From NCBI GenBank assembly GCA_049319825.1, contig JBMORT010000006.1, positions 166,340-230,339 on the forward strand: a stretch of DNA of 64,000 nucleotides. Direction: 5' to 3'. Positions 13,352-60,127 of the stretch are shown here, piece by piece. The DNA comes from Patescibacteria group bacterium. GTDB taxonomy: Bacteria; Patescibacteriota; Patescibacteriia; UBA11705; DATKZF01. The first letter of the stretch is position 1, and each line of letters starts with the position of its first letter. The notes under the pieces are model-generated. The model worked only from the letters and a program-made list of their open reading frames with translations. It was not told the DNA's origin and did no database searches. Both the position numbers and the translations under genes were made by a program.

Positions 13352-13634
13352 ATGTAAGAAATTGGAAATTGGAAACTAGAAATTATAATTTTAAAAATTT
13401 CAAAAACTACAAATATTATACTGGATAAAGAAAGTTTTGTCAAACAATTTTAGCTTTACTTTTCCCTTCGTTTATAGTAAAATTAGACTTGATTATATTG
13501 TGATTTGGATTAAATTATTTAAATTTTCAATTGCGTGATGAGAAAAATTAATAAATAAAAATCTCATTGAAACGCTAACAAGAATAGCTAATGTTCTAAA
13601 TGTTGGCACTGATGATTTAATAAAATAAAAAAAC

Positions 13635-29931: not shown

Positions 29932-30192
29932 GCAGTAGGCAATAGGCAGTAGGCGATAGAGTTTGTTGTATAAAAAATTTGACCATCAAATTTATGTTGG
30001 AAGCGTTTAAAAAAATGACGTTTTTAACTGTTTAAGCCGAGCGCGCGCTCGGTTTTTTTTTGAACTTGATAAAAGGCGCGGTTTTGTGTAAGATACCTTG
30101 ATTTGGCCAAGACTTCGATTTAATATGGTTAAATTCAGTGTTGGCCAAATCGGCTCGCACCTTGACAATCGATCATGGAGAGGAGTTAGGCC

Positions 30193-33100: not shown

Positions 33101-35655
33101 ATCATTTTGAATGGTTTATTGATGGAGGCTTAATTCCTGACATTACCTTTGTGCCAGATTACGAGTTTACTTTTAATGACTACGGACAATACGTGTATTT
33201 TGTGCGCATTGTCCATAAAGAAAATAGTTGCATAACCGAGGGCTTCATCAATATTAATGTTGTTAAGCCTTATGAGTTGTTTGACATTTTTGATCTGGAT
33301 GTTATTTTTGAAAATCAAGAGCAAGGCAAGCATATTATTTCACTTGAGCTTCCTTCCCATGATTTCGTGGTATTTAAGGTTAACGGCGGGGCAGGACCGT
33401 TTACTTTGAGCTGTTTTTACGACATGGGCAATCCTGACCCAATCGAAATTTATGCAGCGAAAGATCTAGGAAATGTCTATTATTTATTCAATCAGGGCAC
33501 GCACATCCCTTGTTATTCTGGAAACACATTGTATTTAGATGAGGGCATTTGGCATGTCCGGATTGAAACTGGGGAAGTGATAAATAATATCATCACTTTG
33601 GAATCAAGCTTTCATCTTGACCATGAGCGTTATGCAACACAAAAATACCGAAAAGGACGGTTTTATTGGGGAGCGCTTTCTGGTGTGTGTGAGAATGATT
33701 CCGATGTCTTTTGCACCACTGGAGATATTTTAAATTTGCCAGCGGGTTTTATTCCTGTAGTAGGCGATTCAATTGATGTTTTTCAGGCAATTATAAATAT
33801 GGGCATTTACGCCCAAAAGGAGCTGGATTTAAATATTATTCGGTTGAATTCTGATTCAGAAAAGCAAGAATTTTTGCAGGCCGGAGCGTTTGCCTCAATT
33901 GCCGCGCTGACTCCGTTTATCACTAACAAAATGGTCAGGTTTGTGGCTGATGGCAATTTGTTAAATCTGGTAAAAAATGAAAAAGGTACCAGAGGAGCAA
34001 TTGACTATATCAGCTATCAGCAAGTGGCTGCCAGAGGAAGCTTGAGAATTGACAATAATGAGTTTCATCAGGATATTTTATCAAGCGAATACAATTCGTT
34101 CTCCCTGAAATTAAAAACATTTTCTGACGGAGTTGATCCGCTGTTCAAATTTGATGAAAGCTTAAAAGAAATTATGGATGAAATTGATGAGGCTGTTATT
34201 GATGTAAAACAACAAATTAAAAACAGCAATGACTTGCCAAGGATCCAGGAACACATTTTGCAGGAGTTTGGTGAAGAAGTGGACATTGATCATGTTCCAG
34301 CCACTGATTTAATCAGATATTATGATACAGATCCTGAACTAACACTTTCAGGAACTTTAAGCGAAGATGTTGCATATATCAGAGAAGGCATTGCCTCGCT
34401 TTTTGCCAGGGCAACTGCTAATCAAGCTGACATGATATTAAAGCCAGCTGGAGCTTTTGAGCGGATTGACAATGTTTATGTGCTTTTTCCCTCTAAATCA
34501 AATCTTAATCAGGTATTTCCATTGCAGGTAGGCATTAAAACGCCTTATGACCCGGTAATCGTAAGAAAAGAACATGCCGGCAGATACATTGATCTTGAAA
34601 CAGGATTTGTATATGTGGAAGGCATTAATACCTTTATTACAAAAGAGATTGATTTTGTTGCAGAGATTGAAGGCACGAATGAAATAATTGCTTTTGAATT
34701 CAAATGGGGGCGTTCAGATGATAAACAGGCAGCAAGAACTTTTGCGACTTTAAAGAAGTTATTCCCTGATAAAAAGATAAATGTAATAAACAATGCTAAT
34801 TTAAGAGATCCCACATTAACTGGAAACAGATTATGGGCAGAATCAAATATTGATTCTGATTATGTGATATATACAAATGATCCGAGTTCAATCACTCCCA
34901 CCGCAGACTTTCAAATAAATACGCCCTTTGAAATTTTCTGCGAGAATGGGCAAAATCTTGTGCCGATTCGGATTACAGCCACCAAACTGATCGACAGCTT
35001 GTGGTGCGTTAATCAGGAGAGTCAACAGCGGTACGATCAGTTTTACGAAAAAGAAGGGGAATATGTGTTGGCGGTCGCGCCAGCCGATCCGTACGGGATG
35101 GTCGCGTACAGCTGCCAAGCCACCAGCGCCGACGGCGATCAAGCGTCGGACGTGGTCACATTAATCGGATCGAAAATTCATATTCCTGAAGATGAAGACG
35201 CCAATCACAGGTTTGTCATGGCGATCGCCCCGCGATTTCCGTTAGCCGGGGAAAAAATCGAGATTGAGATTTACTCGCTCGATAAAAGCTGTTTAACCGA
35301 TGTCGATTGTCAGATTAGCGGCGCCGCTATCAGCGATAAAAGAATGAAAGTCAGACTTAAAGTGGATGATATCGAATTTCAGCATGATGGCCAGGTCACT
35401 TATGACTTCTTGGATTGCCGCGAGTATGATTTCATGTTCAATATGATCAAATCCGGACCGAATATTGTTTCCTGCACCGGCCGGTTCCTGGACGGATATT
35501 CGTTGACGCTGGAAGAAGAGGTGAATGTTCCTGTCGATCAAATCCAGCGTGTTCATAAAAGTTCTTGCCAAGTCGGGCAAGGCGTTGGCCAGCCGCTCTG
35601 GCTGACCTTGCTGGCGCTGTGGCTTTTGCCCCGGCGCCGAAAGTCCAAAATCTAA
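30193..35655 (+). CDS. giant (1820 aa) secreted Cys-rich repeat protein with C-terminal sorting-signal-like tail
   Basis: Signal peptide MRRLVAGTVILLFIILKSSQSLAG. There is an acidic region, about 700 aa of tandem Cys-rich modules (recurring ...CG.D....C......RGC..AQC...), a Cys-poor aromatic-rich region and a C-terminal tail ...CQVGQGVGQPLWLTLLALWLLPRRRKSKI. A strong RBS GGAGAGGAG precedes it and terminator 35664-35691 follows it. Confidence 0.85.
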   Translation: MRRLVAGTVILLFIILKSSQSLAGYDFIVVEPAAAEYSPGEEITFHFAFYFIQMGITCATISGSVYNESGGLIDAATQGIASDGSYHLYAYANAPSGYGVHIFEMMFHVQLCPGWQFSDGSTSISYSEDILIEIAGSATNSDVESDIDLYDEDIWEEIGDGDDVFEVGERICFEIELENDSSSDSYDIDAVYTYSSGADVDWNDDDCGVDFTLSELDEDWVDDDFCFTARELGRVKVEIYVKLEGAATLYNVDSFHIDIVCQPSWSCTNWSSCANCFQTRVCTDSHNCGTTSGKPAESQSCGIFPNQCDPFGSLCDGNVAYDCLYDSYNCYYYKSNQQTCLYGCSFGECASATECAYTDCYLDDLWCHNSAGIRTYIGQDCGALQEVEYEFICDGIERWAIAHETNRGCQSGQCYVSLHDSSYYLETCSQQCANGQCVNPDCLYTACLNNDLWCYNSANQPQYLAEDCGNASGTSTISAVYCSETGDLVKLKSYSTRCCANGACGWCFQYNYEQVQVECPAGCDPDTDQCLACVPAFDCYQAQVCLSDDTQEYQCDDLLCGQPSYTEIRPCQYCDEKCALGESYCAGNTAFTCVSVGGCDTDWQSAFCGYSEEIEGEPYCSGNNVMKDTTATDRWCADGACQQEISINAEAIADCGVDTSFSTMPYCLNDDVVFDDVEIFRGCSSGSCYEDETSESQILMACGEDTTISGVKSCNSDGNATFGDIHIVRGCENAQCHEYPIQDYFAEFVCPCGCDDGDCLPCDGCDYLDCGTSEFHSTLPYCHQGKVVFDNINIERGCADSACFAVDNSQYYQLLDDCGTDEINTNVAFCRDGNIAVGNSGYIRGCSDAQCYEESIDYVAFIILCECGCSEAACLPCYEACVSLRCNPEDGNVWCYDSWGQATSLETDCAQNEVCLGGIEYDAECVELIAPVCDQFGVGIDQTIYRAADRFPLTRTLTLELKGFFVYDVDHFEWFIDGGLIPDITFVPDYEFTFNDYGQYVYFVRIVHKENSCITEGFININVVKPYELFDIFDLDVIFENQEQGKHIISLELPSHDFVVFKVNGGAGPFTLSCFYDMGNPDPIEIYAAKDLGNVYYLFNQGTHIPCYSGNTLYLDEGIWHVRIETGEVINNIITLESSFHLDHERYATQKYRKGRFYWGALSGVCENDSDVFCTTGDILNLPAGFIPVVGDSIDVFQAIINMGIYAQKELDLNIIRLNSDSEKQEFLQAGAFASIAALTPFITNKMVRFVADGNLLNLVKNEKGTRGAIDYISYQQVAARGSLRIDNNEFHQDILSSEYNSFSLKLKTFSDGVDPLFKFDESLKEIMDEIDEAVIDVKQQIKNSNDLPRIQEHILQEFGEEVDIDHVPATDLIRYYDTDPELTLSGTLSEDVAYIREGIASLFARATANQADMILKPAGAFERIDNVYVLFPSKSNLNQVFPLQVGIKTPYDPVIVRKEHAGRYIDLETGFVYVEGINTFITKEIDFVAEIEGTNEIIAFEFKWGRSDDKQAARTFATLKKLFPDKKINVINNANLRDPTLTGNRLWAESNIDSDYVIYTNDPSSITPTADFQINTPFEIFCENGQNLVPIRITATKLIDSLWCVNQESQQRYDQFYEKEGEYVLAVAPADPYGMVAYSCQATSADGDQASDVVTLIGSKIHIPEDEDANHRFVMAIAPRFPLAGEKIEIEIYSLDKSCLTDVDCQISGAAISDKRMKVRLKVDDIEFQHDGQVTYDFLDCREYDFMFNMIKSGPNIVSCTGRFLDGYSLTLEEEVNVPVDQIQRVHKSSCQVGQGVGQPLWLTLLALWLLPRRRKSKI

Positions 35656-39676: not shown

Positions 39677-42600
39677 ATGCTTTCTACAGTTTTTAAAATT
39701 AAAATTTTGAAAAAAAGTTTTTATCGATTTAAAAAGATAATATTTGTAATGTTGTCGTCTTTTATCGTTTTTTTTGCGTCTTTTTTGCAATTTGACATTA
39801 ATTCAGCCATGGCTGCCGATTCCGGATTTCAAAATCCCACGGCCAATGCGGCCGTGACCAGCGGCGCCGGAGACAATAACGGTTATCAGACAAGCCCCAC
39901 CAATGCTTACGCTGACGGAGGAGGAACGGCCATTGACTCAAACAGCGGCTCGAACACCAATGATACTTGCGCCAGCGCCGGAGCGGACAAGCACATTTGG
40001 AGCAATTTTAATTTCAATATACCGCTCGGTTCGAGCATTGACGGCATCGAGCTGCGTCAGGATTTATCGGTGGACAGTCTCAGCGATAGTCCTTTTACAT
40101 GCGTTGCTCTGTCGTGGGACGGCGGAACAACTTGGACTGCCTATAAAATCGCGTCTTTAAGCACCACCTCCGAAACGACATACACCTTTGGGAATGGAAC
40201 TGACAATTGGGGCAGATCGTGGAGTGGGGGAGAATTAAGTAACGCCAATTTTAGAGTGATGATCGCCAATGGAGATACCAATAACGCCAGATCCAGACGG
40301 GATTTTTCTCTTGATTGGATTGCTCCAAAAATTTATTATACTCCACCGACCCTGAATCAATCTGGCTATCGCCTATTTAATAATGCCGATTCCGCCAATG
40401 TGGGCAGTCCGTTGGCCGCGCTTAATTCGGCAGCTCAATTATCTTCGGGAAATGATAATTTCAGGTTGAGGCTGCTGTTGCATGACAGCGGGGTTAATTT
40501 GCCTCTGGCCGGTGATAATTTTAAACTGCAATATGTCGATAAAGGCGTGGGTACTTGCGCCGCTCCCAGTGGAGGCACTCCGGCCTCATACACTGATGTC
40601 ACCGCCGCGACAGCGATTGCTTACAGCAATAACCCGACACCGGCTGACGGCAGCGCTTTAATTGCCAATGCCAATGATCCCAGCCATGGTGCTGACGCGG
40701 TTATCAATCAGACATACGAAGAATTGAATAATTTTACAAATTCCCAAGCTCCGGTCGCGGTTGGTCAGGATGGCCTGTGGGATTTTTCTTTAAAGGATAA
40801 TACCGCGCCGGACGATAAAACATATTGTTTCCGAGTGGTGAAATCAGATGGATCTTTATTAAACGCATATTCGGTTTATCCTGAAATAATGACCGCTGAA
40901 GGCCCGCCCGTGTTAATGAGCGTCGTTGCCAGCGATCCGGACAATTGGGACAGCGTTCTCAGCAATTGGGATAGGCTGACTTTGCTTTTTAATAAAAGCA
41001 CCAATGCTCCGCAGGCCGGAACCAAGACCCAAATTGACGGCTTGATTAATTTTGCCAATCCGCTGGGTGCGAATTATTCAGGCATTTGGCAGACAACTAA
41101 TTTTATCGATGATACGTTGCGAATCACGGTTATCAGCGCCCTAGGCGGCAGTTTAAATATCGGCAATTTGATTTCAATAATCGCGGACGGCACTGAAGAT
41201 TTGAAAAATCAATCGGAGACATCTCCCGCTTCAACGACTTCCGGGAATGTCACCGGTAATTGGGGCTTCCAAAAGGCCTATTACGCCTGTGATGCGGTCG
41301 ATCAGGTATCATACATGGATGTCAATCTCGGAGCTTCTTCAAAGACCTTGTTGGGTAATCTTGGCGCGGCCAACGTTGAAGCCATTGTTTATGATTACAA
41401 TACGCAGACTTTATACGGCGCCAACGCCGGTCAATTGGGCACAATCAACCAAAGCACCGGTGCTTTTTCCGCCTTGCCGAATCCCATCGGCTCCGGCAAC
41501 GGCTCTCTCGGGGTTTTGGCTTTCAATGATGTTGACGGTCTGGCATTTGACCCTTGGACCAGCGTTTTATACGGCACGGTCAGGCGTGATCCGGGCAAGG
41601 ATTTATTGATAAAAATCAATCCGGCTACCGGCGCCAGAATCGCGAATGCATTCGGTACCGGAGTGGATTATGTGGTCATTGATGAAACGGGGGTGTTTGA
41701 CGATGTGGATGATATTAGCATCAACCCCCTCGACGATAAAATGTACACCATTGGCAATCAAGGTCATTTAACGGAAGACCAGCTTCTAATCATCAATAAA
41801 TTAACTGGTGCGATCAGTGTTCAGGCGAATTTCGGCATTATTCCCGGTTATGACATTGAAGGCATGGCCTTTTCCAGCGATGGTCGAATGTGGGGGACGC
41901 GCGGCGTGCCCAATGAATTAGTGCAGGTTATTTACAACACCAACCCTCCAACTATTACCGGCAATGTCAGTTTGGCTCCGGGTTGCGGCGATCCGGAAGG
42001 AATAGACTTCCAGATTACTTCTACCAACACGGTTACCGGAAGGGTCTGGGATGATTTGGACACGGACGGCGTTTTGGACGGCGGGGAACCGGGGTTGGCC
42101 AATGTTACCGTACGGTTATACAAAGATTTAAATAGCAATGGACTGGCGGACAGCCTCGATCTTTTAATTCAATCAAAAGTTACCGATGTTAGCGGAAATT
42201 ATACATTCAAATTTTTGGCTCTTGACGATTTTGTTTTGGAAATCGATGATTCTTCTTTGCCTTCCGGCTACGGGCTGACCACGGATAATTTGGAGGTAGC
42301 GGCTTTCACTTCGATGGGGGAGCTTGATGAAAATAATAATTTCGGCGCTGTTGCCGGTTCTGATTGCGACGGCGACGGCATTCCTGATTTTATTCAGGGG
42401 GTCGGAATAAACGATTTCGATGGAGACACGGTAATCGACAGCTGTGATTTGGACGTGGATAATGACGGCATATTGAATGCGATGGAAAGTTCCAATGATC
42501 GGGATGGTGATTCAATTCCAAATTTTAGAGATGTGGATTCGGATAACGACGGCATCCCTGATGCCAGGGAAGCCAATAGCGGCGTTGCGCCGACCGGTTA

Positions 42601-45600
42601 TAATATCAGTTTGGGATATATGACCGGCACGGATACGGACGGTGACGGTTTACTCGATCAGGTGGACAGCCTGCCGGCCGTTCAGTATGGCGCCAGCGCG
42701 TCTACTTTGCCGATACCCAATACCGATTCGGACGCAGTCCGCGATTTTCTTGACGGGGATTCTGATAATGACGGCATTTTAGACATCATCGAAGCCGGCG
42801 GCGCTGACAGCGATGGAGACGGCGAGATAGACAGTTTCACCGATGTCAACGGTGATGGGTATCATGACCCGCTGAATACATCACCGTTACCGTTACCCAA
42901 TACCGATATTTCAGGAAAGCCTAACTATCTTGATTTGGATTCAGACGGGGATGGTCTGCCTGATTTTAGAGAAGGTCAGTCAACGGCCAGTTACCATGTG
43001 CCGCTGATAATAAGTGATGCTGATGGCAACGGTATCATTGACGCTTATGACAAATCAGCGGGCGGGAATCCTATCGTGCCGGTGGATACAGACAGCGATG
43101 GCATTCCGGATTATCGCGATTTGGACACCGATAATGACAGTCTTACGGATATCAGTATCGGCGAGGGACACGCCAGCGCCACTTTGGTCGGAGCGGATAC
43201 CGATTCGGATGGTATTGATAACGGTTTTGATACCAATAATTCTCCCTCATATTATTTTTTAAATAATACCGCGGTGACCGATAATCCGCCGCCAAATACT
43301 TTCGGCACTTCAGAGTATAACTGGCGCGAGTTTGACGCCGTGCCCTCAGCTGATTTATCTTTGGATAAATTGGTAGACAATAGCGCGCCCAATGTCGGAG
43401 ACACCATTACCTATACCATCACCGTTTCCAATGCCGGGCCGAATAACGCCACCAATGTATCAGTCGTTGATTTATTGCCGGCCGGAGTGACATATTCGAG
43501 CGCGACGCCTTCTCAGGGCAGTTACAATAATATTTCCGGAGTATGGACTGTTGGAACGATTAATAACGGATCGACCGCCAGTTTGCAGATTTCAGCCACG
43601 GTGAATGTCGGAACCGGCAATTCAACAATATCAAATTCGGCTCAGGTTTCAGCGTCTGATCAGGCAGATCCCGATTCGACTCCGAATAACAATATGCCGC
43701 TCGAAGATGATCAAGACAGTGATGACATCGACGTTCAGGCGGCCGATTTATCTTTGGTTAAGATTGTCGATAATGTCACGCCAAATGTTGGGGATATTGT
43801 GAAATACACGATAACCGTTTCCAATGGCGGTCCGGATACGGCCACAAATGCGGTGGTCAAGGATATTTTGCCGGTTGGTGTTACTTATTCCAGTGATAAT
43901 CCGTCGCAAGGAAGTTATAATTCAGGTACGGGCCTATGGACGATTGGCACAATAAATAATGGTGCTAATGCTGTTTTGGAAATCAATGCGGATGTTGATA
44001 CCGGAACGGGCGGCACTACTATTGATAATACCGCTGAAGTATATTCCGTTGATCAAGAAGATCCTGATTCGACCCCAGATAATAATGTCCCTGCCGAAGA
44101 TGACCAGTCGAGCGTTTCAATTACGGTCGAGTCGGCCGATGTCGCCATTACCAAAACGGACGCGGCAGATCCGGTGACCTTGGGCAATAACATTCAATAC
44201 GATGTGACAGTCACCAATAACGGTCCGTCGGACGCGACCAATGTTGATGTGACCGACACATTGCCGGCGGGGGTGACGTATGTCAGCGCCACGCCAAGTC
44301 AGGGAAGTTGTTCGGAATTGGCCGGAACAGTGACGTGTAATTTGAATACCATCAATAATGGCAATAGCGCGACCATCACCATAATCGTCACGCCAACCTC
44401 CAGTGGAAGTTTTACCAATAATATTTCAGTGACGGCCACGGAAAGCGATCCGACGCCGGGCAATAATTCAGATAGCGAAGATACGACAGTCGGAGACGTT
44501 GCTGATTTGTCTTTGACCAAAACTGTCGATATTTCAAATCCAAACGTGGGGGACATGATTACCTATACTATTACCGTTTCCAATGCCGGCGCGGGAAATG
44601 CGACCGGAGTTTCCGTCAAAGATATTTTACCGGCTGGCGTTACGTATTCGAGCGACACTCCTTCTCAGGGTACTTATAATTCGGTTACCGGTGTTTGGAC
44701 ATTGGGCAGTATCGCTAACGGCGCCAGCGCTATCTTGCAGATCAGCGCCATTGTGGATGCAGGCTCTGCCGGAAGCAGCATTGCCAATATTGCTCAAGTA
44801 TCAGCGTCAGACCAGCCCGATCCTGATTCTACCCCAAATAACAATGCTCCGGCCGAAGATGATCAGGACAGCGCTTCCATTACCGTGCAATCAGCTGATT
44901 TGTCTTTAACAAAAACTGTTGATAATGCCGCGCCAAATGAGGGAGATACCATTCAATACACAATTATTCTAAATAATAGTGGACCGGACAATGCGGAAAA
45001 TGTTTCCGTGAAAGATTTGTTGCCGGTCGGAGTGACATATTCTTTTGATATTCCTTCTCAGGGAACATACGATTCAATCACCGGCATTTGGAACATCGGT
45101 AATGTTATTGGTTTAGCCAGCGCCACGCTTCAAATAAGCGCCACAGTCGATATCGGCTCAGCTGGAATTCCCATTGTTAATACAGCGGAAGTGATTGCCA
45201 GCGATCAGGAAGATCCTGATTCGACTCCGAATAATGATGTTCCGGCCGAAGACGATCAAGACAGCGTCATTATAAATTCCAGCGGCGCGGATTTGGAATT
45301 AACCAAGACAGACAGCATTGATCCGATCTACCTGGGGTCAAATATCCTTTATAATATTGCCGTTCTAAATAATGGACCGGCAGACGCCACCGGCGTGATC
45401 GCCACTGACAGCTTACCGGCCGGAGTGACATATGTCAGCGCCACTCCGAGTCAGGGAGCCTGCGCGGAAGCCGCGGGGATGATTACATGCAATTTGAATA
45501 ATATCAGCAATGGCAGCAGTGCGACGATTGCCATTACGGTTATACCGTTGTCTGACGGGATTTATGCGAATAGCGCTTCAGTGTCAGCTTCGGAATCAGA

Positions 45601-48109
45601 TCCGCTGCCCGCCAATAACAGCGATAATGAAAATACGACGGTCGATCCGGTCAGTGATTTATCATTGACAAAGATCATTGATAATAATAATCCAAGTATT
45701 GGAAATTCGATTAAGTATACTTTAACTCTATTAAATTCCGGTCCCAGTCAAGCGACTAATGTGTTTATTAAAGATTTATTGCCGGCGGGCCTGACTTACG
45801 TCGGTAATACACCGTCTCAGGGAACATATGATTCACTGACAGGCGAATGGACGGTCGGAGTCGTTAATAGCGGCGCCAGCGCCACTTTGGAAGTGAGCGC
45901 GACGGTTAACAGCGGCACGGCCGGGCAAGTGATTAATAATACCGGAGAAGTTATTGCCTGCGATCAACATGATTCTGACTCGACTCCCAATAATAATCTG
46001 CCGGCTGAAGATGACCAAGCGAGCGTTAGTTTAACCGTAAAATCCGGTGGCGGCGGCGGTGGCGGTGGCGGTGGCGGATCTGTTCCTCCGGCAGCCTGCG
46101 TGGCGATTTCCGGCGCGAATTCATCATTAAAAATCAATAATGGCGCTGAAAAAACGGATAGTTTAAGCGTACTGTTAAACTTGTCTTATTCCACCGCTAC
46201 TTCGGTGATGTTTAGCGAGAATTCCGATTTTACCGGCGCTTCTTCTCAGCCGGTATCGGGCAGTTTGCCTTTTTCACTCAGTTCGGGAGCGGGAGAAAAA
46301 AAGGTTTACGCCAAATTATCGAATCAGTGTTCGAGTGTTACTGTTGCTGATACCATTTTATATGAATTGCCCGAATCCGAGGAATGCATCGTTAATTGTG
46401 ACCAAATTACTTATAAACTTTATATTGTCAATCCAGACGGTACCGAGAGGCACGCGGGAACCAATTATGTTCAGCAGGAGCAAGTCGCGGACGGCATTGT
46501 ATTATATAAATTCGAAGACAAAGGCTTGGATTTTGATTATAACGACGTCTTTGTTCAGGTAGACGACCGCAATTGTTCCGGTGTAAAGTTTAGCGTCACC
46601 CGAGAGCTGGAAGCAAGCTGGCACCATCAGATAGGAGTCAATATTTTTTACCAAGGGAAGCTGTCAAAACATATTTTACTCTGGTCGGATTCTCACACTT
46701 CATTCGGAAATGAAAGGACGTATGATTTTTCAACCGACCAGAGTCTCTGCGAAGAGTCAATCGAGCCGATCGAAGAGCCGGAGATCGAGCCTGAACCGGA
46801 AGTGCCAGTCGAGTGCGTCGTTGACTGCGACAAAGTCAAGTTTGATCTATTCATTGTCAATCCCGACGGCACCGAGAGACATTCTGGTACCAGGTTTGTC
46901 GAGGAAGAAAAGGTTTCCGACGGTGTGATATTATATAAATTCGAAGATAAAGGCGAAGATTTTGATTACAATGATGTATTCGTGCAGGTGGACCGTCGCG
47001 ATTGCGCCAATGTGATTTTCAGCGTTACCAAAGAGCTCGAAGCCAGCTGGCATCATCAAATAAAAGTCAGATTATCCGGCAATGGAATAGTCGGCGGCGC
47101 CATCACTCTGTGGCCCGATTCCCACATGTCGTTTGGCAATGAGCGGTCGCTCGATGTTTCCGCCGATCAGAGTCTTTGCCAGCAGTGCGTAACTGATTGC
47201 CAAAGAGTGACTTACGATTTATACATTGTTAATCCTGACGGTACCGAGAGGCGCATGAACAGCCGTTATGCTCAGATTGAAGATCAGGGCAATGGCGTGA
47301 TTTTGGTGAAATTTGAAGACAAGGGAAATGACTTCGATTACAATGACGTTTTAATAAAAGTTGACAAGAGCACTTGTGAAATTATCAAAGTGACTTCGCT
47401 TCAGCTGGAAGCCGGTTGGCATCATCAGATAAAAATCAAGCTGCTGTATGACGGGATCGAGCGAAATGACGTTTTGCTTTGGGCTGATTCGCATCTGTCA
47501 GTGGATCAGTCGAAAGAGGTGAATTTGACCGATTACTCTCGGCTCTGTGAAGTTGATTTGCTGGATAAAGTGGAACAGGCCGCGGTTACAGTTTTTGAGC
47601 ATATTAATTTTTTGGGCAGGTCTCAGACTTTCGTCGCCGGTCAAAAAGTGCCTGAGCTGACTGTTTTTTCTTTCAATAATTTAATATCATCCGTGAAAAT
47701 CGTAGGCAATGCGGCGGTAGATTTTTTCACTGAGGCGTTGTACTCTGGCAGATCAGAGCGTTTTAGCCAAGACGACTTTGATTTAAGAAATAATTCTATC
47801 GGAAACGATACGGTGACGTCGCTTCAAGTGTCTTTACGCGCTCAAAATATTCCATCCGCATCGGCCGCAGCGCTCCGCTGCGGCGGAAATGTTGTCTTCA
47901 GCGAAATGACAGCCGGCGATCAGGGATCGAATGTTGTCTCGCTTCAGGAATTGTTGAAATGTTTGGGATTTTTTCCCCAAGGTCAGCCAGCTACCGGATA
48001 TTTCGGACCGGTTACGGAGAATGCGCTTAAAAATTTTCAGCTGTCAAATGGGATTGAGCCATCCGGGTATTTGGATCAGGCGACCCTGAGCGCGATCAAT
48101 GATTTATAA
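39677..48109 (+). CDS. giant (2810 aa) multi-domain surface protein / putative adhesin
   Basis: N-terminal signal/anchor helix. Aspartate-rich Ca-binding DxDxDG(I/L)xD repeats are TSP3-like (about aa 880-1200). About 8 tandem DUF11 repeats follow (LSLDKLVDN...VTYSS..PSQG...G.W..G). Then come a poly-Gly linker (GGGGGGGGGGGS), 3 tandem DUF4114-like repeats (VNPDGTER...FEDKG.DFDYNDV...WHHQI) and a beta/gamma-crystallin-like domain (VFEHINFLGRSQTF). The C-terminus is a PG_binding_1 domain (LQELLKCLGF...GYFGPVTENALKNFQ). Confidence 0.9.
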   Translation: MLSTVFKIKILKKSFYRFKKIIFVMLSSFIVFFASFLQFDINSAMAADSGFQNPTANAAVTSGAGDNNGYQTSPTNAYADGGGTAIDSNSGSNTNDTCASAGADKHIWSNFNFNIPLGSSIDGIELRQDLSVDSLSDSPFTCVALSWDGGTTWTAYKIASLSTTSETTYTFGNGTDNWGRSWSGGELSNANFRVMIANGDTNNARSRRDFSLDWIAPKIYYTPPTLNQSGYRLFNNADSANVGSPLAALNSAAQLSSGNDNFRLRLLLHDSGVNLPLAGDNFKLQYVDKGVGTCAAPSGGTPASYTDVTAATAIAYSNNPTPADGSALIANANDPSHGADAVINQTYEELNNFTNSQAPVAVGQDGLWDFSLKDNTAPDDKTYCFRVVKSDGSLLNAYSVYPEIMTAEGPPVLMSVVASDPDNWDSVLSNWDRLTLLFNKSTNAPQAGTKTQIDGLINFANPLGANYSGIWQTTNFIDDTLRITVISALGGSLNIGNLISIIADGTEDLKNQSETSPASTTSGNVTGNWGFQKAYYACDAVDQVSYMDVNLGASSKTLLGNLGAANVEAIVYDYNTQTLYGANAGQLGTINQSTGAFSALPNPIGSGNGSLGVLAFNDVDGLAFDPWTSVLYGTVRRDPGKDLLIKINPATGARIANAFGTGVDYVVIDETGVFDDVDDISINPLDDKMYTIGNQGHLTEDQLLIINKLTGAISVQANFGIIPGYDIEGMAFSSDGRMWGTRGVPNELVQVIYNTNPPTITGNVSLAPGCGDPEGIDFQITSTNTVTGRVWDDLDTDGVLDGGEPGLANVTVRLYKDLNSNGLADSLDLLIQSKVTDVSGNYTFKFLALDDFVLEIDDSSLPSGYGLTTDNLEVAAFTSMGELDENNNFGAVAGSDCDGDGIPDFIQGVGINDFDGDTVIDSCDLDVDNDGILNAMESSNDRDGDSIPNFRDVDSDNDGIPDAREANSGVAPTGYNISLGYMTGTDTDGDGLLDQVDSLPAVQYGASASTLPIPNTDSDAVRDFLDGDSDNDGILDIIEAGGADSDGDGEIDSFTDVNGDGYHDPLNTSPLPLPNTDISGKPNYLDLDSDGDGLPDFREGQSTASYHVPLIISDADGNGIIDAYDKSAGGNPIVPVDTDSDGIPDYRDLDTDNDSLTDISIGEGHASATLVGADTDSDGIDNGFDTNNSPSYYFLNNTAVTDNPPPNTFGTSEYNWREFDAVPSADLSLDKLVDNSAPNVGDTITYTITVSNAGPNNATNVSVVDLLPAGVTYSSATPSQGSYNNISGVWTVGTINNGSTASLQISATVNVGTGNSTISNSAQVSASDQADPDSTPNNNMPLEDDQDSDDIDVQAADLSLVKIVDNVTPNVGDIVKYTITVSNGGPDTATNAVVKDILPVGVTYSSDNPSQGSYNSGTGLWTIGTINNGANAVLEINADVDTGTGGTTIDNTAEVYSVDQEDPDSTPDNNVPAEDDQSSVSITVESADVAITKTDAADPVTLGNNIQYDVTVTNNGPSDATNVDVTDTLPAGVTYVSATPSQGSCSELAGTVTCNLNTINNGNSATITIIVTPTSSGSFTNNISVTATESDPTPGNNSDSEDTTVGDVADLSLTKTVDISNPNVGDMITYTITVSNAGAGNATGVSVKDILPAGVTYSSDTPSQGTYNSVTGVWTLGSIANGASAILQISAIVDAGSAGSSIANIAQVSASDQPDPDSTPNNNAPAEDDQDSASITVQSADLSLTKTVDNAAPNEGDTIQYTIILNNSGPDNAENVSVKDLLPVGVTYSFDIPSQGTYDSITGIWNIGNVIGLASATLQISATVDIGSAGIPIVNTAEVIASDQEDPDSTPNNDVPAEDDQDSVIINSSGADLELTKTDSIDPIYLGSNILYNIAVLNNGPADATGVIATDSLPAGVTYVSATPSQGACAEAAGMITCNLNNISNGSSATIAITVIPLSDGIYANSASVSASESDPLPANNSDNENTTVDPVSDLSLTKIIDNNNPSIGNSIKYTLTLLNSGPSQATNVFIKDLLPAGLTYVGNTPSQGTYDSLTGEWTVGVVNSGASATLEVSATVNSGTAGQVINNTGEVIACDQHDSDSTPNNNLPAEDDQASVSLTVKSGGGGGGGGGGGSVPPAACVAISGANSSLKINNGAEKTDSLSVLLNLSYSTATSVMFSENSDFTGASSQPVSGSLPFSLSSGAGEKKVYAKLSNQCSSVTVADTILYELPESEECIVNCDQITYKLYIVNPDGTERHAGTNYVQQEQVADGIVLYKFEDKGLDFDYNDVFVQVDDRNCSGVKFSVTRELEASWHHQIGVNIFYQGKLSKHILLWSDSHTSFGNERTYDFSTDQSLCEESIEPIEEPEIEPEPEVPVECVVDCDKVKFDLFIVNPDGTERHSGTRFVEEEKVSDGVILYKFEDKGEDFDYNDVFVQVDRRDCANVIFSVTKELEASWHHQIKVRLSGNGIVGGAITLWPDSHMSFGNERSLDVSADQSLCQQCVTDCQRVTYDLYIVNPDGTERRMNSRYAQIEDQGNGVILVKFEDKGNDFDYNDVLIKVDKSTCEIIKVTSLQLEAGWHHQIKIKLLYDGIERNDVLLWADSHLSVDQSKEVNLTDYSRLCEVDLLDKVEQAAVTVFEHINFLGRSQTFVAGQKVPELTVFSFNNLISSVKIVGNAAVDFFTEALYSGRSERFSQDDFDLRNNSIGNDTVTSLQVSLRAQNIPSASAAALRCGGNVVFSEMTAGDQGSNVVSLQELLKCLGFFPQGQPATGYFGPVTENALKNFQLSNGIEPSGYLDQATLSAINDL
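43330..46030 (+). repeat. DNA-level tandem array of about 8 DUF11-repeat coding units (~375-390 bp each) inside the giant gene
   Basis: Recurring nucleotide blocks such as GATTTATCTTTG..., CCGGATTCGACTCC/CCTGATTCGACTCC and GAAGATGATCAAG are visible by eye. Boundaries are approximate. Confidence 0.6.
46370..47560 (+). repeat. 3 tandem DUF4114-like coding repeats (~390-420 bp) inside the giant gene
   Basis: TGTGACCAAATTACTTATAAACTTTATATTGTCAATCCAGACGGTACCGAGAGGCAC recurs as ...GTCAATCCCGACGGCACCGAGAGACAT and ...GTTAATCCTGACGGTACCGAGAGGCGC. Confidence 0.65.
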
Positions 48110-52918: not shown

Positions 52919-55900
52919 ATGCCAGACAAAAAATTCATTGACGAAAAAATAAAGGCGGGAGTGGAGGAATACGAGGAAGAGAAAAAGGCTAAACAAGAAG
53001 AATTGGCCAAAGAGGCGGATGAAGCCATCAGTGCCATGTTTTCGGCAGAGGCTGCGACAAATGATTCTGTTATCGAGCAATTGAAAAAGATCCCAAACAG
53101 CAAAAAGGATCAGTATTTTGCCGCTTTACTGAGAGTCCATGAACACGCGTTATTTTTTTTGCAGGCGTTCAGCGGCTTGAGCGCGCGTTCGCAAAAATAT
53201 TTGGCGGAATTCATTGAGAAACAGGGCTATATCGATACTTCTCAGATCAATAATATTTTCAATGCTTTTAATGAAATAACCGATCGTCAACTCCGAAGAT
53301 GGATTTTTGAATATGTGCCTCCGCGACAGATATTGAAGTATAAATCAAAACTGCCGGATTTATCTGAGCAGAAATTGCTGTCTTTGGTCGAGGTCCGAAA
53401 TTTTTCCAGAAAAGATTTGGATTGGCCGGTAATTCTCGAATATATAGAATATTTTCCCTCGATCGACAGAAAAACGGTGATTGATAAAATTATCTCCAGG
53501 TATTCGATTGATCAATACATACGCCTATTATTTATAAAAAAGGACGCGCTTGGCATCACTGTCGAGGAATTGCTCGAATTACTATTTTCCAATAAAAATT
53601 TTTATTCAATTTGCGACAGCTTAGATTTGATTGATCCCAAATACCATCAGCAAATAGCCGATACCCTGTGTGAAACTGATAGCGGAGCCGCAGTGGCATT
53701 GAGAAGCGCGGCACTATTTAAAAATGTTGACGGAGAGAAAATTTTAAGAAAAGTGATTAATGATTATAATGAGGATCAATGGGGGTTGGGCAGAATAATT
53801 GATTCTTTTCAATCAGTCGCCAAGGCATGGGGCCGGCAAATTCCGAAAGAGATCGTCGAACAGATATTCGATAAAGATTATCTTGCTTTAGCCGGGAACA
53901 TCGATGAATTGGGCGATAACGCTGACAAAGAGAAACTTGAAGAAAAATTATGGAATAATCGAGAATTTAAAATACTCATAACAACTTGTCGATCTTATGG
54001 AATTGTACCGGACGCAAAATTCGCTGAAAGATTAATTAGCAACGATGGCGCCGTAGAAGTTTTGGACAATATCAAGCATTTCGATTTATTGCCGAGAGCC
54101 GTTTATTTGGAATTGGAAGGGATCTCTCCCAAAAGAACATACGCCTCATTGCATCATTTCGAAGGTTTAAATAAGGACGACGTGTTTCGAGCCATGACAG
54201 GATCGGTTAATGAGGATATTGTGCACAAGATAATAAAAGATTTCCAAAATTTCGAAGGATTGAATCTCGATTACGAATTCGCCGAGCGTTTGATCGGAAC
54301 GGGATACATCGGCGTCTTATACAAATATTTGAACCAATTTCAAGAATTAACCCCTCATGTTATAACTGAATTGGCTCTTTCAGACGCGCAGTTGGTAAAA
54401 TCCGGTGATTCTGATCTGGAGTTTTTTCTCCGTGAACTAAATCAGTTTCAATCTTTAGATGAAAAAGATTATCAATCGATAGCCAATAAAATTTTGCGCA
54501 GCCGCCATCCGCGTTTATTGGCGACTTTCGCGAACCGATTCATCGGAAAAATTCCGGATAAAGATTTTCAGCTCATCGTGGAAAAGTTGATTGGGAAAGG
54601 AGAGGCGGCATCCGTGTGCTGGAATTGGAATAGCATCGCCCGCGCGAAACTTGATTATTCGAAAATCGCCGGATTATTGATAGATGCCGGAGCTTTCGCG
54701 CATGTCGCCGAGCATAGAGAGTTTTATCCAGCGATACAAAAAGACCGCGGGCTCGCGGAAAAAATTTGGGATGGATTTTTAAATTGTAACGAATGGGAGT
54801 TATACCAAGTGTCACAAATGGAAGAAATTGACAGCTTATTTAAAACTCCAATCGACAAAAATTTTAGGCGAGCATTTGAAATCGTCGGATACTCCCTGAC
54901 AAAAGAGATTTATGAAACGATAAAAAAAATAAAAGACGGATCGCTCGAAAAAGATGAAATGGATAATCTGGGCGTCACGGAAATCGGTGATAAAGGCCTG
55001 CGGCAGCTCAATGAACGCTTGAATGCTTTTAAAACGGAAATTTTGAAAGACGAATTCGACCCGTCGATTATGGAGAAATCAACGCTGTTGCGGCAATATT
55101 TCAAGCAATACGTCAATTTTAAAAATAGTCAGTTTGGCGAGCACGGTGACGAGGAATTCGGAGCAATATTGGATGTTTATGTTTATTCCAGAAGGAGAAG
55201 GGATTTCAGGCCGCTTCCTGAATATTTTACACCGAGCGGAAAGGTGATGGTTCTCCAAGCGAACCGGAAGAACCAGGATGCCTTTGAATATTCAAAGCCG
55301 TTCAAGGATCGTTATCAATCAATGAAAGCGTCGCTAGCTGAGGCGATTCGCATGCTTGATAATAAAAATTCCGAGATTGAACTGCTGGCAATGATCGAAC
55401 GCATAAGGATGGAAGTGATAAGTAATTTCCGAGAAAAGTTATCCAAAGCCGCGGATAATCCCCGGGCGATGGGAAATTTACAAAAAAACATCAGCGATTT
55501 AGAGACGCTGAATCTAAATGGCATAAGCGAATTCCAAGAAAATTTTGCAGTTTTGTCGCCATATAAAGAATTTCATAACGCGCTCAGACAAATGGCTTTT
55601 TATTTGGCGCTTCTTAAATTCGAGAATTTTAAAAATCGGGCCCGATCGATCGCCACTCAAGACGAGCCGGATTTTGATGATATCGGTTGGATGATAAATT
55701 TTATCGAAAACATTGTCAACGAAGAAACCTGGGGAGAAATTCTCAATAATAACAAGGCGATCAAGGCATTTCGATCATTGACGAATATTAAAGCATTGGA
55801 GGAAGAATTTTCCAGAGCGCAAAATCAGAAGTCCGATAAAAAGACAGCGCTGGAATTCGTGCCGACGCGAGGGATTCTAATGGAATTTTCCGGACATATA

Positions 55901-56344
55901 TCAGATGCTTGCTGGGCTTCAACGTACAGGAGCATTGCCAGCGCCTTTCCTAATTTTATTGCTGTCATAATCAGGCAAAACATGGGAACAAAATTCGAGA
56001 GGCTGGCCGGCGCCAGCATGTTGATAGAAACGGAAGCGTCCGACAGAACGCCGCTGCTGGTGATCAGAGGATTAAATCCGATAGAGAATTCAATCAATTC
56101 ATTGCAAGTTCAGGATTTTTTTAAAAAATTTGTCGAATATGCGAAAGAGTTGGCTAAAAAAGGCGGCCGAAGATTGGGCATCGTCATCGATGATCACTCT
56201 GGCGGCTCCGCCACCAATAGGCCAGTTTTATTTGAATATTTGGAGGGATTAGCATCGGAATTAACTCCGATCCGTTTACGCACGAAAAGCGATACGACTT
56301 TCAACGGCTACGATATTGTGGACAATACTTTCCTGTTGGACTAG
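52919..56344 (+). CDS. large (1141 aa) predominantly alpha-helical hypothetical protein
   Basis: Long ORF with no recognised catalytic motif. An extended -10 (TGCTATAATG) lies upstream and nagZ follows within 7 nt. Confidence 0.65.
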   Translation: MPDKKFIDEKIKAGVEEYEEEKKAKQEELAKEADEAISAMFSAEAATNDSVIEQLKKIPNSKKDQYFAALLRVHEHALFFLQAFSGLSARSQKYLAEFIEKQGYIDTSQINNIFNAFNEITDRQLRRWIFEYVPPRQILKYKSKLPDLSEQKLLSLVEVRNFSRKDLDWPVILEYIEYFPSIDRKTVIDKIISRYSIDQYIRLLFIKKDALGITVEELLELLFSNKNFYSICDSLDLIDPKYHQQIADTLCETDSGAAVALRSAALFKNVDGEKILRKVINDYNEDQWGLGRIIDSFQSVAKAWGRQIPKEIVEQIFDKDYLALAGNIDELGDNADKEKLEEKLWNNREFKILITTCRSYGIVPDAKFAERLISNDGAVEVLDNIKHFDLLPRAVYLELEGISPKRTYASLHHFEGLNKDDVFRAMTGSVNEDIVHKIIKDFQNFEGLNLDYEFAERLIGTGYIGVLYKYLNQFQELTPHVITELALSDAQLVKSGDSDLEFFLRELNQFQSLDEKDYQSIANKILRSRHPRLLATFANRFIGKIPDKDFQLIVEKLIGKGEAASVCWNWNSIARAKLDYSKIAGLLIDAGAFAHVAEHREFYPAIQKDRGLAEKIWDGFLNCNEWELYQVSQMEEIDSLFKTPIDKNFRRAFEIVGYSLTKEIYETIKKIKDGSLEKDEMDNLGVTEIGDKGLRQLNERLNAFKTEILKDEFDPSIMEKSTLLRQYFKQYVNFKNSQFGEHGDEEFGAILDVYVYSRRRRDFRPLPEYFTPSGKVMVLQANRKNQDAFEYSKPFKDRYQSMKASLAEAIRMLDNKNSEIELLAMIERIRMEVISNFREKLSKAADNPRAMGNLQKNISDLETLNLNGISEFQENFAVLSPYKEFHNALRQMAFYLALLKFENFKNRARSIATQDEPDFDDIGWMINFIENIVNEETWGEILNNNKAIKAFRSLTNIKALEEEFSRAQNQKSDKKTALEFVPTRGILMEFSGHISDACWASTYRSIASAFPNFIAVIIRQNMGTKFERLAGASMLIETEASDRTPLLVIRGLNPIENSINSLQVQDFFKKFVEYAKELAKKGGRRLGIVIDDHSGGSATNRPVLFEYLEGLASELTPIRLRTKSDTTFNGYDIVDNTFLLD

Positions 56345-57445: not shown

Positions 57446-57594
57446 CCTAATTTCTAAATAATGTCCAATTCCCAATTTCCAGTTTCAATTTTTATTCGTA
57501 ATTATTTGTAATAAAACGATCATGGTCGTTATTCGTAATTTCCCAATTTCCAATTTTTCGTTTCCAATTTCCAAAATAAAAACCGGCCACAAGT

Positions 57595-58233
57595 TTATGG
57601 TCGGTGTTTTTTTGCGAGTTCGATCAGCTCGACTCGAGTGATGTCGAACATATCTTCGAATTGTTTATTTGATAAGAACATGTTCTTTTTCTGAGGTGTG
57701 ACCCTCTTTGATCGAAGGAAAATCAATCTGCCGCGAAGAAGTTTGGGTGAAAACATTAAATAAGAAGGATTTTCTCTGATATAGAAATTCATTTCTTCAA
57801 ATAAGCAAAGCAGGGCGATTGTGCGCTCAGCCGTGTAGCCGAGGATTGACGGCAGTTTGACAACCATTTTGATAACATCATCTTTGGCAAAGCCAAATTC
57901 AATCAAATTCTGAAGTAAAGAATTGCTGCGCTCAGCCGTGCAGCTGAGGATTGCCGGCATTTTAATAACCATTTTGATAACATCATCTTTGTCAAAGCCA
58001 AAGTCAATTAAATTCTGAAGCAAGCCATTGGTGCGCTCAGCCGTGAAGCCGAGGATTGCCGGCAGTTTGATAACCATTTTAATCAAGTCGTCTTTATCAA
58101 AGCCAAAGTCTTCCAGGGCTTTCAGATGTTTTACTATGGTTTCGGCCGGAATGATGTATTGTTTATCAATGTCAGCGATATCAATGCCGTATTCAGCTGA
58201 AATTGCAGCCTGTTCCGGGTAATCGGTTGCCAT
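57595..58233 (-). CDS. mTERF-like helical-repeat protein (bacterial)
   Basis: Three or more tandem ~32-aa repeats LQNLIDFGFDKDDVIKMVIKMPAILSCTAERSN / LQNLIEFGFAKDDVIKMVVKLPSILGYTAERT match the mTERF pattern (L..LGF....I.K.V...P.IL..S.E). The repeats are also near-identical at DNA level (~96-bp units at about 57840-58130). Confidence 0.5.
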   Translation of the reverse strand: MATDYPEQAAISAEYGIDIADIDKQYIIPAETIVKHLKALEDFGFDKDDLIKMVIKLPAILGFTAERTNGLLQNLIDFGFDKDDVIKMVIKMPAILSCTAERSNSLLQNLIEFGFAKDDVIKMVVKLPSILGYTAERTIALLCLFEEMNFYIRENPSYLMFSPKLLRGRLIFLRSKRVTPQKKNMFLSNKQFEDMFDITRVELIELAKKHRP

Positions 58234-58554
58234 CGGTTTTTCTCCGGTTTGTTTGTCAATGAACCTGAAAGATTAACATACGAAGCGGCGGCTGTCAAGG
58301 TTGGGAATCTGTTATGTGTTTCATGATCCATGTTCCATGATACGCGCTCCATGATTTTGACTAATTTTTAAGAATATGATATATTTTTGATACATGATTT
58401 CATGGCCTATTGATCCCTGCTCCATGATCCATGATTCATGACTAATTCATTAAATCACACATACTTTCCTTGGCTAATTTATGCCAAAAATTAACATTCC
58501 TCCCACCATGCGGGCAGTTGATTTGGGAAAGTAGCGGTTAAAAGGAACAAATTT

Positions 58555-59286
58555 ATGGAAATCCCAAGTCTTTTGGACATGCTGAAAGCCGGTGTTCATT
58601 TTGGACATCAGTCAGGCAAATGGCACCCGAAAATGAAGCCTTATATTTACGGCCAAAGAAACGGCGTGCACATCATTAATCTGGAAACAACTCAAACCAA
58701 GCTTGAAGAAGCTTTTAATTTCGTTAAGGAAACTGTGGCCAATGGTGGCACGGTTCTTTTTTTGGGCACAAAAACCCAGGCCAAGGAAATCGTGCGCGAG
58801 GCTGCACGATCTTGCGGCATGCCGTTTATCGTCGAACGCTGGCTGGGCGGCACATTCACCAATTCCGCGACAATTTTGAGGTTAATCAAGAAGTACCAGC
58901 GGATGAAAAATGAATTTGAAAGCGGTGATTGGCAAAAATACACGAAAAAAGAAAGATTGGTCAAAGAACGTGAATTAAAGAAGCTCGATGTTTTGATCGG
59001 CGGTTTAGCCGGCATGGATAAACTGCCTGACGCCATTTACATAGTGGACATCAGAGAAGAAAAAACCGCGGTACTCGAATCGAGAAAAGTCAAAATTCCA
59101 ATTGTGGCCATTTGCGATACCAATGTCAATCCCGAATTGACCGCTTATCCGATCCCGGCCAATGACGACGCGGTTAAATCAATAGAGCTGATCACCAATT
59201 TGATAGCGCAGGCGGTGAATGAGGGTAAGAAAGAAGTGAAGCCGGCGGAGAAGCCCAAAGCTAAACCTGAAATGGTTAAACAATAA
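58555..59286 (+). CDS. rpsB: 30S ribosomal protein S2
   Basis: GVHFGHQSGKWHPKMKPYIYGQRNGVHIINL plus conserved central and C-terminal S2 blocks. Confidence 0.95.
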   Translation: MEIPSLLDMLKAGVHFGHQSGKWHPKMKPYIYGQRNGVHIINLETTQTKLEEAFNFVKETVANGGTVLFLGTKTQAKEIVREAARSCGMPFIVERWLGGTFTNSATILRLIKKYQRMKNEFESGDWQKYTKKERLVKERELKKLDVLIGGLAGMDKLPDAIYIVDIREEKTAVLESRKVKIPIVAICDTNVNPELTAYPIPANDDAVKSIELITNLIAQAVNEGKKEVKPAEKPKAKPEMVKQ

Positions 59287-59412
59287 AAAAATAATTTGTG
59301 GTTACGACGTTATGACGTTAAAAACGTTACGACGTTAAAACGTTACGATGTTATAATTGAAAACGTGACGATGATGATTTCATAACCTCATAACCTGGTA
59401 ACTTATATTCAT

Positions 59413-60000: not shown

Positions 60001-60127
60001 AATGACGAGTGATTATACAAGATTACAAGATATCGAGTACAAGATTATACTGATTACAAGATGTACAAGATAATTTATGGTATCTTGTATATCTCGTACC
60101 GTGATCTTGTAATCTTGTAGATTCAAT
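60001..60127. repeat. TACAAGAT x5 direct followed by ATCTTGTA x3 inverted (tsf-PSP1 spacer)
   Basis: TATACAAGATTACAAGATATCGAGTACAAGATTATACTGATTACAAGATGTACAAGATAA ... GGTATCTTGTATATCTCGTACCGTGATCTTGTAATCTTGTAG. Confidence 0.75.

Follow-up and report, generated by a model that had tools for sequence, protein, structure and literature searches.

A 64,000-nucleotide stretch from a Patescibacteria group bacterium (contig JBMORT010000006.1, positions 166,340 to 230,339), referred to here as the window, was analysed for a gene on its minus strand whose product belongs almost certainly to the mTERF superfamily. The gene is an open reading frame (ORF) of 212 residues running from ATG to stop at 57595..58233, as given by the ORF listing of the window. 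The encoded protein appears to be a small bacterial member of the superfamily, of the prokaryotic type recently named pTERF, in which an N-terminal cap, three 35-residue units and a C-terminal cap are predicted to form a curved mTERF solenoid. The analysis establishes the family, the fold, the selection on the gene and the evolution of its repeats, while the role in the cell, the binding to DNA and the residues that read it are inferred from pTERF1, pTERF2 and human MTERF1. By analogy with these proteins, a function as a small pTERF-type sequence-specific DNA-binding regulator or roadblock is moderately favoured. The identical protein in NCBI (P0001, ACOZBH_03215) is labelled 'hypothetical protein' and comes from a metagenome-assembled genome (MAG) of a Patescibacteria group bacterium.

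The mTERF assignment is secure on account of the Pfam score, the MTERF3 match, the confident model and the structural matches. The Pfam mTERF profile (PF02536) matched 162 residues (aa 30-191) with 80.8 bits against a cut-off of 23.1 and E = 1.1e-22, and the match covered profile positions 143-312 of 314. Among the PDB sequences the best natural match was human MTERF3/MTERFD1 (3m66, 4.8e-10), while the best match overall was the designed 35-residue toroid dTor_6x35L (E = 3.9e-13); BurrH, which is similar to the transcription activator-like effectors (TALEs), was also matched by plain phmmer (E = 3.3e-5). The AlphaFold2 model, built with six homologues, reached a mean predicted local distance difference test score (pLDDT) of 86.8 and a predicted template modelling score of 0.78. 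DSSP analysis of this model revealed a recurring long helix, medium helix and 5-residue helix with a period of 35 residues. The 18 best Foldseek matches in the PDB were all mTERF-family chains or mTERF-type subunits of mitoribosomes, with probability 1.0 and template modelling (TM) scores up to 0.72, and MTERF3, MTERF1 and MTERF4 were the top matches. The designed toroids superposed poorly (TM 0.22, root-mean-square deviation about 16 Å) and the match to the TALE structure 4hpz was insignificant (E = 0.11, TM <0.2).

The canonical mTERF motif has a proline at position 8 and hydrophobic residues at 11, 18 and 25 (Roberti 2009 via PMC11417379). This pattern is partly kept in the window protein: the proline, P23 of the unit, does not vary among the three units, motif positions 11 and 25 are matched by L26 (P+3) and by L5 of the following unit (P+17), and the position equivalent to motif position 18 is S or T. 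Local Pfam matches to UBA, FeoA and HTH were rejected as assignments, being 16-40 residues long and at or below the cut-offs (16-20 residues for the UBA-type matches), and the NCBIfam search of the protein gave nothing meaningful. The initial annotation had read the unit consensus as L.NLI[DE]FGF.KDDVIKMV.K.P.IL..TAER and had related it to the mTERF helical repeat. The consensus is correct and the family relation is borne out by profile search and by the predicted fold; no other helical family took the place of mTERF in the profile search.

The array is in register and consists of three contiguous 35-residue units (U1 to U3, Table 1). Tandem Repeats Finder placed it at 57818-58110 with a period of 105 bp, 2.8 copies, 86% matches and a score of 428. 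The C-terminal cap carries two degenerate mTERF motifs, NPSYLMFSPKLLRGRLIFL and FLSNKQFEDMFDITRVELIEL. The protein had initially been described as composed of repeated units of about 32 residues, encoded by three near-identical repeats of about 96 bp that arose by recent slippage or recombination. The ORF, the tandem array and the three units stand, while the period is 105 bp (35 residues) and the repetition does not extend over the whole protein, in which aa 1-35 form a degenerate cap and aa 141-212 a non-repetitive one. The units cannot be called near-identical because their DNA identity is 73% (U1-U2), 73% (U1-U3) and 85% (U2-U3), and the synonymous divergence (dS, Nei-Gojobori method) is 1.06, 0.76 and 0.30, respectively. 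The ratio of nonsynonymous to synonymous divergence (dN/dS) between the units is 0.2-0.47 and their protein identity 66-71%.

A recent expansion by slippage or recombination in this lineage would explain the 85% DNA identity of U2 and U3, and the family does gain and lose units, as described below. This explanation is nevertheless improbable in view of the dS values between the units (0.30-1.06) and of an orthologue with 72% identity (P0002), recovered from another sequencing run, in which the same three units follow one another in identical order; several more distant relatives are likewise three-unit proteins. The three-unit copy number therefore predates the split of the two lineages. U2 and U3 of the orthologue are 82% identical in DNA (dS 0.48), against 85% (dS 0.30) in the window gene, whereas U2 of one gene against U2 of the other gave 70% (dS 1.9) and U3 against U3 gave 72% (dS 2.9); with 35 codons per unit these unit-level dS estimates are noisy, though consistent in direction. 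A similar picture was obtained for the relatives of the type found in the candidate phyla radiation (CPR), whose units are on average 57% identical inside a protein and 42% across proteins. As units within a gene are more alike than orthologous units, concerted evolution through intragenic gene conversion is indicated. The three units would thus be kept alike by intragenic recombination and not by recent expansion.

Gain and loss of whole units and intragenic recombination act in the family. Two loci (L010:1979-2587 and L011:3001-3714) show 100% identity across the gene and the 1 kb of DNA upstream of it save for an exact 105-bp indel giving 3 and 4 units. The difference is due either to a true polymorphism in repeat number or to collapse of units during assembly (their units are 92-94% identical); other pairs of close relatives have 4 against 6 and 3 against 2 units. 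Several related loci contain N-masked gaps inside the array, and short-read assembly can collapse near-identical units, hence some of the apparent indels may be artefacts. The proposal of slippage or recombination thus holds for the family, in its unit indels and concerted evolution, and fails as recent expansion for this gene. A comparison of repeat number among strains had also been suggested; indels of one 105-bp unit are seen among relatives, while the sole other assembly with the window gene (L006, 100% identical across 16.4 kb) is uninformative on strain polymorphism because it very probably represents the same population.

Descriptions of the mTERF family come overwhelmingly from eukaryotes. 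Bacteria and fungi have no mTERF genes according to a plant study of 2026 (PMC12977773), and this survey shares with most other work on mTERF the view of the family as a eukaryotic invention missing from bacteria. A screen of tandem-repeat proteins published in 2024 in Nucleic Acids Research has however named pTERF, a set of prokaryotic mTERF-like proteins (PMC11417379). The unit count of its members is 3-11, and most of them originate from MAGs of Bacillota. pTERF1 (MBQ3414883.1), with a period of 35 (TR_35), comes from a rumen Clostridia MAG and binds ACTNNNAGTC in double-stranded DNA (dsDNA) sequence-specifically with a dissociation constant of 1.87 nM, while pTERF2 binds a different DNA motif (PMC11417379). 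The existence of bacterial mTERF proteins is therefore already published, and the window protein adds a member from a lineage apparently not yet reported; no paper joining mTERF with Patescibacteria was found in the literature searched.

The distribution of the family was investigated by running phmmer exhaustively with the window protein over 1.84 billion cluster representatives. The search yielded 988 clusters at E ≤ 1e-3, of which 322 were at ≤ 1e-10 and 24 at ≤ 1e-30, and the best 150 of the 988 fell into three groups. Group A comprises short proteins of about 170-265 aa, mostly with the TAERTN unit ending, whose named sources are Patescibacteria or Saccharibacteria MAGs and groundwater metagenomes, along with one MAG labelled Gammaproteobacteria. 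The many low-GC proteins of group B are 230-850 aa long and built of 35-aa units; a Mycoplasmatota label is attached to one of them, and a single cluster counts 777 members. Their contigs are bacterial, with tyrS, SpoU methylase, rimM, trmD and rplS, or with dnaX, ybaB and recR. Full-length phmmer matches in group B reach 1e-39, and a profile built from this group matches MTERF1 at 3.7e-18. Group C contains long, eukaryotic-looking (algal or plant-like) proteins. The C-terminal cap alone found groups A and B and none of group C among its 70 best phmmer matches, therefore groups A and B share one architecture. The strict TAERTN subgroup is rare, with 3 loci in 185,579 species-representative genomes and 11 in metagenome contigs of the Joint Genome Institute, counts which rest on a single peptide pattern. 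The description of such proteins as rarely reported in bacteria thus fits most of the literature, but no longer holds in full after the pTERF publication and with hundreds of bacterial metagenome clusters. The window gene, its orthologue and these clusters extend the single 2024 report, adding Patescibacteria as a second bacterial lineage to its mostly Bacillota members.

Two of the low-GC bacterial contigs carry adjoining pairs of mTERF-family ORFs, of 230 and 131 aa with an ATGA overlap (L004:10001-11085) and of 132 and 229 aa (L005:9198-10690). These pairs could be tandem paralogues or split genes. The L004 pair lies two genes upstream of a SpoU/MRM3-like rRNA methylase, rimM, trmD and rplS.

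The window protein was compared with the known systems. With pTERF it has in common the prokaryotic MAG origin, strictly tandem 35-residue units, a unit count within 3-11, the Pfam mTERF motifs and the predicted three-helix unit, and it shares repeats and C-terminal cap with the pTERF-type low-GC Bacillota/Mycoplasmatota proteins. It differs in its source, Patescibacteria against mostly Bacillota for the published members, and in having only three full units, the TAERTN unit ending and a near-neutral isoelectric point (pI). Further, pTERF1 is without the canonical proline/hydrophobic pattern (PMC11417379), while in the window protein the proline is retained, as are two hydrophobic positions out of three. 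As the published description (prokaryotic, 35-aa tandem units, 3-11 of them) fits, the protein is taken as a new member of the recently described pTERF kind, pTERF1 being compared by its description. The likeness to the eukaryotic proteins (human MTERF1-4 and the plant mTERFs) lies in the significant profile and MTERF3 matches, the same fold, the short P-x-[IL]-L helix whose flanking residues contact DNA in MTERF1, and C-terminal capping motifs of the same type. In contrast to them, the window protein is bacterial, has no targeting peptide and is about half the size; its units are regular and tandem where the eukaryotic motifs are degenerate, and the bacterial units show concerted evolution and differ in copy number among close relatives.

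Contamination of the MAG by eukaryotic DNA, or very recent acquisition of an organellar mTERF gene from a eukaryote, was considered as the family is described so overwhelmingly from eukaryotes. This explanation is effectively refuted. The gene is embedded among bacterial genes on a 365-kb MAG contig, it has a bacterial-type promoter and ribosome-binding site, its GC content (41.3%) and the GC content at third codon positions are in line with those of the neighbours, its synteny is seen again in a second organism, and the C-terminal cap matched bacterial proteins only. The bacterial context, the promoter, the ribosome-binding site and the absence of an N-terminal extension resembling a transit peptide are also not those of the nuclear-encoded, organelle-targeted eukaryotic mTERF proteins, a difference that bears on the occurrence of the family and leaves its fold untouched. 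A phage or plasmid origin was likewise rejected, since tblastn with the window protein found no phage copies and tblastn with one low-GC relative found neither phage nor plasmid copies.

The gene lies between rpsB-tsf-pheST and a glycoside hydrolase family 3 (GH3) gene. One flank carries rpsB, tsf, a gene with a PSP1 domain and pheS/pheT, and the other carries the GH3 gene and large unannotated ORFs. The orthologue P0002 retains the order of rpsB (divergent), mTERF gene and GH3 (convergent), and among the eight bacterial loci inspected this closest orthologue is the only one to keep it. Between the two genes dN was 0.21 and dS 1.59, with a whole-gene dN/dS of 0.13. The window gene is thus a real bacterial gene under selection. 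No second mTERF gene (paralogue) was found in the window.

The upstream region also revealed conserved signals. The intergenic DNA between rpsB and the mTERF gene (58234-58554 against L007:524-812) is 83% identical between the orthologous loci, compared with 71% for the coding DNA. The candidate promoter of the mTERF gene has a 17-nt spacer ending in TGT, and the promoter block TTGAC…TATGTTAATCTTT is kept at the orthologous locus L007; the consensus promoter scan did not call it because its -10 hexamer is weak. The GGAG ribosome-binding site is also present 5' of the start codon in the orthologue. The hairpin overlaps the stop codon at 57582-57605; on the gene's own strand its stem has one A·C mismatch and is followed by TTTTTATTTT, and it may act as a terminator of the mTERF gene. 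With its own conserved promoter, ribosome-binding site and terminator-like hairpin, the gene would be monocistronic. Also located in this intergenic DNA are the promoter of rpsB (58357-58385, + strand), a conserved leader of that gene and ATCATG(G) elements that recur. The pTERF1 motif ACTNNNAGTC was not seen by eye in the conserved promoter region, and the conserved TTAGTCA blocks there are better explained as the -35 element of the rpsB promoter. The Rfam scan around the mTERF gene gave nothing except a sub-threshold match of the rpsB leader to TEG147 (58516-58575, 28.5 bits).

Each unit is predicted to fold into three helices, of which the first is long and the third is short and carries P-x-I-L, and the face of the short helices may bind a short specific site in dsDNA, by analogy with the characterised proteins. 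The putative reading positions were located from the differences between units, using unit pairs within one protein that were ≥60% identical, in the CPR-type and the low-GC proteins. The differences piled up at unit positions 22, 24, 27 and 28, where about 61-66% of the CPR-type pairs differ against ≤20% at most other positions, although the p-values of these counts are only indicative because the pairs are not independent. The low-GC proteins likewise showed concentration at the same four positions, which flank the invariant P23 and the buried I25 and L26. Secondary variation was seen at unit positions 1, 3 and 35. Between the window protein and the orthologue P0002, 9 of the 12 residues at these four positions differ, compared with 22 of 93 elsewhere.

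These positions were compared with the DNA contacts of human MTERF1 through a profile alignment to the 'RFY' mutant chain 3mvb_O, in which the chain index plus 53 gives the residue number and the mutated alanines mark R162 and F243. The proline-anchored alignment placed R162 of MTERF1 on unit position 21, R202 and F243 on position 24 and R251 on position 32. These MTERF1 residues read bases directly or stack on everted bases (PMC4705650; titles of PDB 3mvb and 5crk). The hypervariable positions thus lie at or beside the DNA-contact positions of MTERF1. In the window protein position 21 is K and position 32 is R in all three units, whereas A/A/S is found at position 24 and F/C/Y at position 28. 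General contacts may be given by K21 and R32 in every unit, while the variable positions 22, 24, 27 and 28 would set the specificity, and the protein would act as a transcription regulator or polar roadblock in the Patescibacteria cell. The combination of homogenised, regular units and a small number of hypervariable positions suggests a recognition code that could be read, for which the window protein is a compact model. If so, the organism, whose genome is very reduced, would have in this protein one of its few candidate regulators with sequence specificity.

Several observations weigh against this proposal, and the balance tips only slightly, if at all, towards sequence-specific DNA binding. 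The protein is near-neutral, with a pI of 6.2 and 29 K+R against 30 D+E, which is unusual for a DNA binder, and most of its relatives have a pI of 9-10. Three full units would give a short footprint, and the hypervariable positions could be simply the least constrained surface residues and not specificity determinants; the dependence among the unit pairs mentioned above adds to this. Several eukaryotic mTERFs bind RNA or serve as adaptors and are not DNA binders. No recurrent gene neighbour or operon partner was found among the eight bacterial loci inspected, so no pathway is indicated. The homology to pTERF1, judged from sequence, runs through proxy proteins, namely the low-GC 35-aa-repeat proteins of Bacillota/Mycoplasmatota type.

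A role in RNA binding or ribosome biogenesis, like that of MTERF3, MTERF4-NSUN4 or plant mTERF9, is possible though not probable. The ligand would then be rRNA or another structured RNA, and the protein might recruit a modifying enzyme. The fold matches include MTERF4 on mitoribosome assembly intermediates and the ciliate mitoribosomal subunit mS93, the gene adjoins rpsB-tsf, and the near-neutral pI suits an adaptor better than a DNA clamp. Relatives are also found amid translation and RNA genes (RNase Y, TruB and IF2; rpsF-ssb; L21), and one low-GC relative is two genes from the SpoU/MRM3-like rRNA methylase, rimM, trmD and rplS. Housekeeping neighbours are however the default in the tiny CPR genomes, and no methyltransferase or other partner is consistently adjacent. 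A conserved rRNA target would agree poorly with the rapid divergence of the putative reading residues among close orthologues, and the sole prokaryotic members tested bind dsDNA sequence-specifically with nanomolar affinity (PMC11417379).

A protein-protein scaffold without a nucleic-acid ligand, that is a generic helical solenoid with neutral variation of its surface residues, is quite unlikely. The neutral pI would suit it, as would the weak local matches to UBA-type three-helix modules and the best solved-structure sequence match, which is to a designed, ligand-free 35-residue toroid. The UBA matches are however only 16-20 residues long and at or below the cut-offs, compared with 162 residues and 80.8 bits for mTERF, K21 and R32 are kept in all three units, and pTERF1, pTERF2 and all mTERF-family proteins cited here engage nucleic acid. 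The dTor match reflects likeness in period and helix pattern, not shared function; dTor_6x35L and the derived designed alpha-toroids (PDB 4yxx, 9h3c and others) have the 35-residue period in common with the window protein, but they are closed and designed and superpose poorly on its model. The DNA-binding regulator or roadblock is retained as the preferred function.

The TALEs and TALE-like proteins (Xanthomonas TALEs, BurrH/Bat, MOrTL, STAR) resemble the window protein in their tandem 33-35-residue two-helix units, homogenised repeats, few hypervariable residues and varying unit number. They differ in that the window protein has no match to Pfam TAL_effector (PF03377) at E up to 10, its units carry K-[LM]-P-[AS] where the TALE-likes have an x-x-G-G loop, and an extra short helix brings the unit to 35 aa. 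That TALE repeats and mTERF resemble each other in structure is an old observation (PMC3401100). No paper claiming a TALE-mTERF sequence bridge was found in the literature searched. In the exhaustive search with the window protein, an 886-aa protein from a groundwater contig (P0016, locus L021:775-3435) was matched at E = 1.6e-43. It is built of 33-aa units, FSKEDILKMVSHDGGSKNLEAVKANRDVLMEFG, with TALE-like 'SHDGG / SHGGG / SHHGG' repeats, and passes the curated Pfam cut-offs for both mTERF (64.9 bits) and TAL_effector (48.5 bits). Its alignment to the window protein runs unit-for-unit at 32-36% identity and places the repeat-variable diresidue (RVD, H-D type) on unit positions 21-22. P0016 may, from its sequence, represent a bridge between TALE and bacterial mTERF-type repeats.

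On the strength of these features of P0016, the 35-residue bacterial unit could be homologous to the TALE repeat and serve as a modular reader of bases, with positions 21, 22, 24, 27 and 28 setting the specificity and with units shuffled and re-numbered by intragenic recombination. The hypervariable positions of the bacterial units do align with the RVD of TALEs. In that case the window protein would represent a minimal DNA binder, natural and programmable, and the bacterial family the source or sister of the organellar mTERFs and the TALE-likes. This wider proposal is rather doubtful; if true, it would offer small programmable DNA binders and bear on the origin of organellar mTERFs.

Table 1. 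Coordinates of the mTERF-family gene, its protein segments and its putative signals in the window
Feature	Coordinates	Strand	Basis
mTERF-family coding sequence, complete (212 aa + stop)	57595..58233	-	ORF, Pfam, identical database protein, dN/dS
N-terminal cap, aa 1-35, including degenerate half-unit YGIDIADIDK	58129..58233	-	Unit hidden Markov model (HMM): weak partial match
Repeat unit 1 (U1), aa 36-70, HLKALEDFGFDKDDLIKMVIKLPAILGFTAERTNG	58024..58128	-	Unit HMM 74.9 bits
Repeat unit 2 (U2), aa 71-105, LLQNLIDFGFDKDDVIKMVIKMPAILSCTAERSNS	57919..58023	-	Unit HMM 78.8 bits
Repeat unit 3 (U3), aa 106-140, LLQNLIEFGFAKDDVIKMVVKLPSILGYTAERTIA	57814..57918	-	Unit HMM 76.1 bits
C-terminal cap, aa 141-212, non-repetitive	57598..57813	-	Pfam mTERF match extends to aa 191
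Ribosome-binding site GGAG, 8 nt 5' of ATG	58242..58245	-	Read from sequence
Candidate promoter: -35 TTGACA (58293-58298), -10 TAATCT (58270-58275)	58270..58298	-	Read from sequence
Terminator-like hairpin over stop codon, T-runs on both sides	57572..57605		Terminator scan, + strand, 8 pairs

Other features of the window were also recorded. A 1141-aa ORF at 52919-56344 (+) adjoins the GH3 gene and has no Pfam match on record. Further away, a 2810-aa ORF at 39677-48109 (+) carries the adhesin-like domains SdrD_B, CLIPPER and PG_binding_1, and another very large ORF of 1820 aa occupies 30193-35655 (+).

Many intergenic regions of the window contain short tandem arrays of 7-10 bp, with a different unit in each. 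These were located at 169-200, 2919-2976, 8511-8552, 8680-8736, 13358-13384, 29928-29959, 57460-57491, 57537-57574, 58411-58441, 59301-59353 and 60016-60071. Their units include TTTCGTG (x8), GTAGGCA (x4), TGATCCA (x4), GTTACGAC (x6.5) and TACAAGAT (x7). Downstream of the mTERF gene, two AATTTCC (x5) arrays flank an inverted arrangement, and the equivalent place of the orthologous locus (L007:1480-1520) carries another heptamer, GTAGATT (x5).

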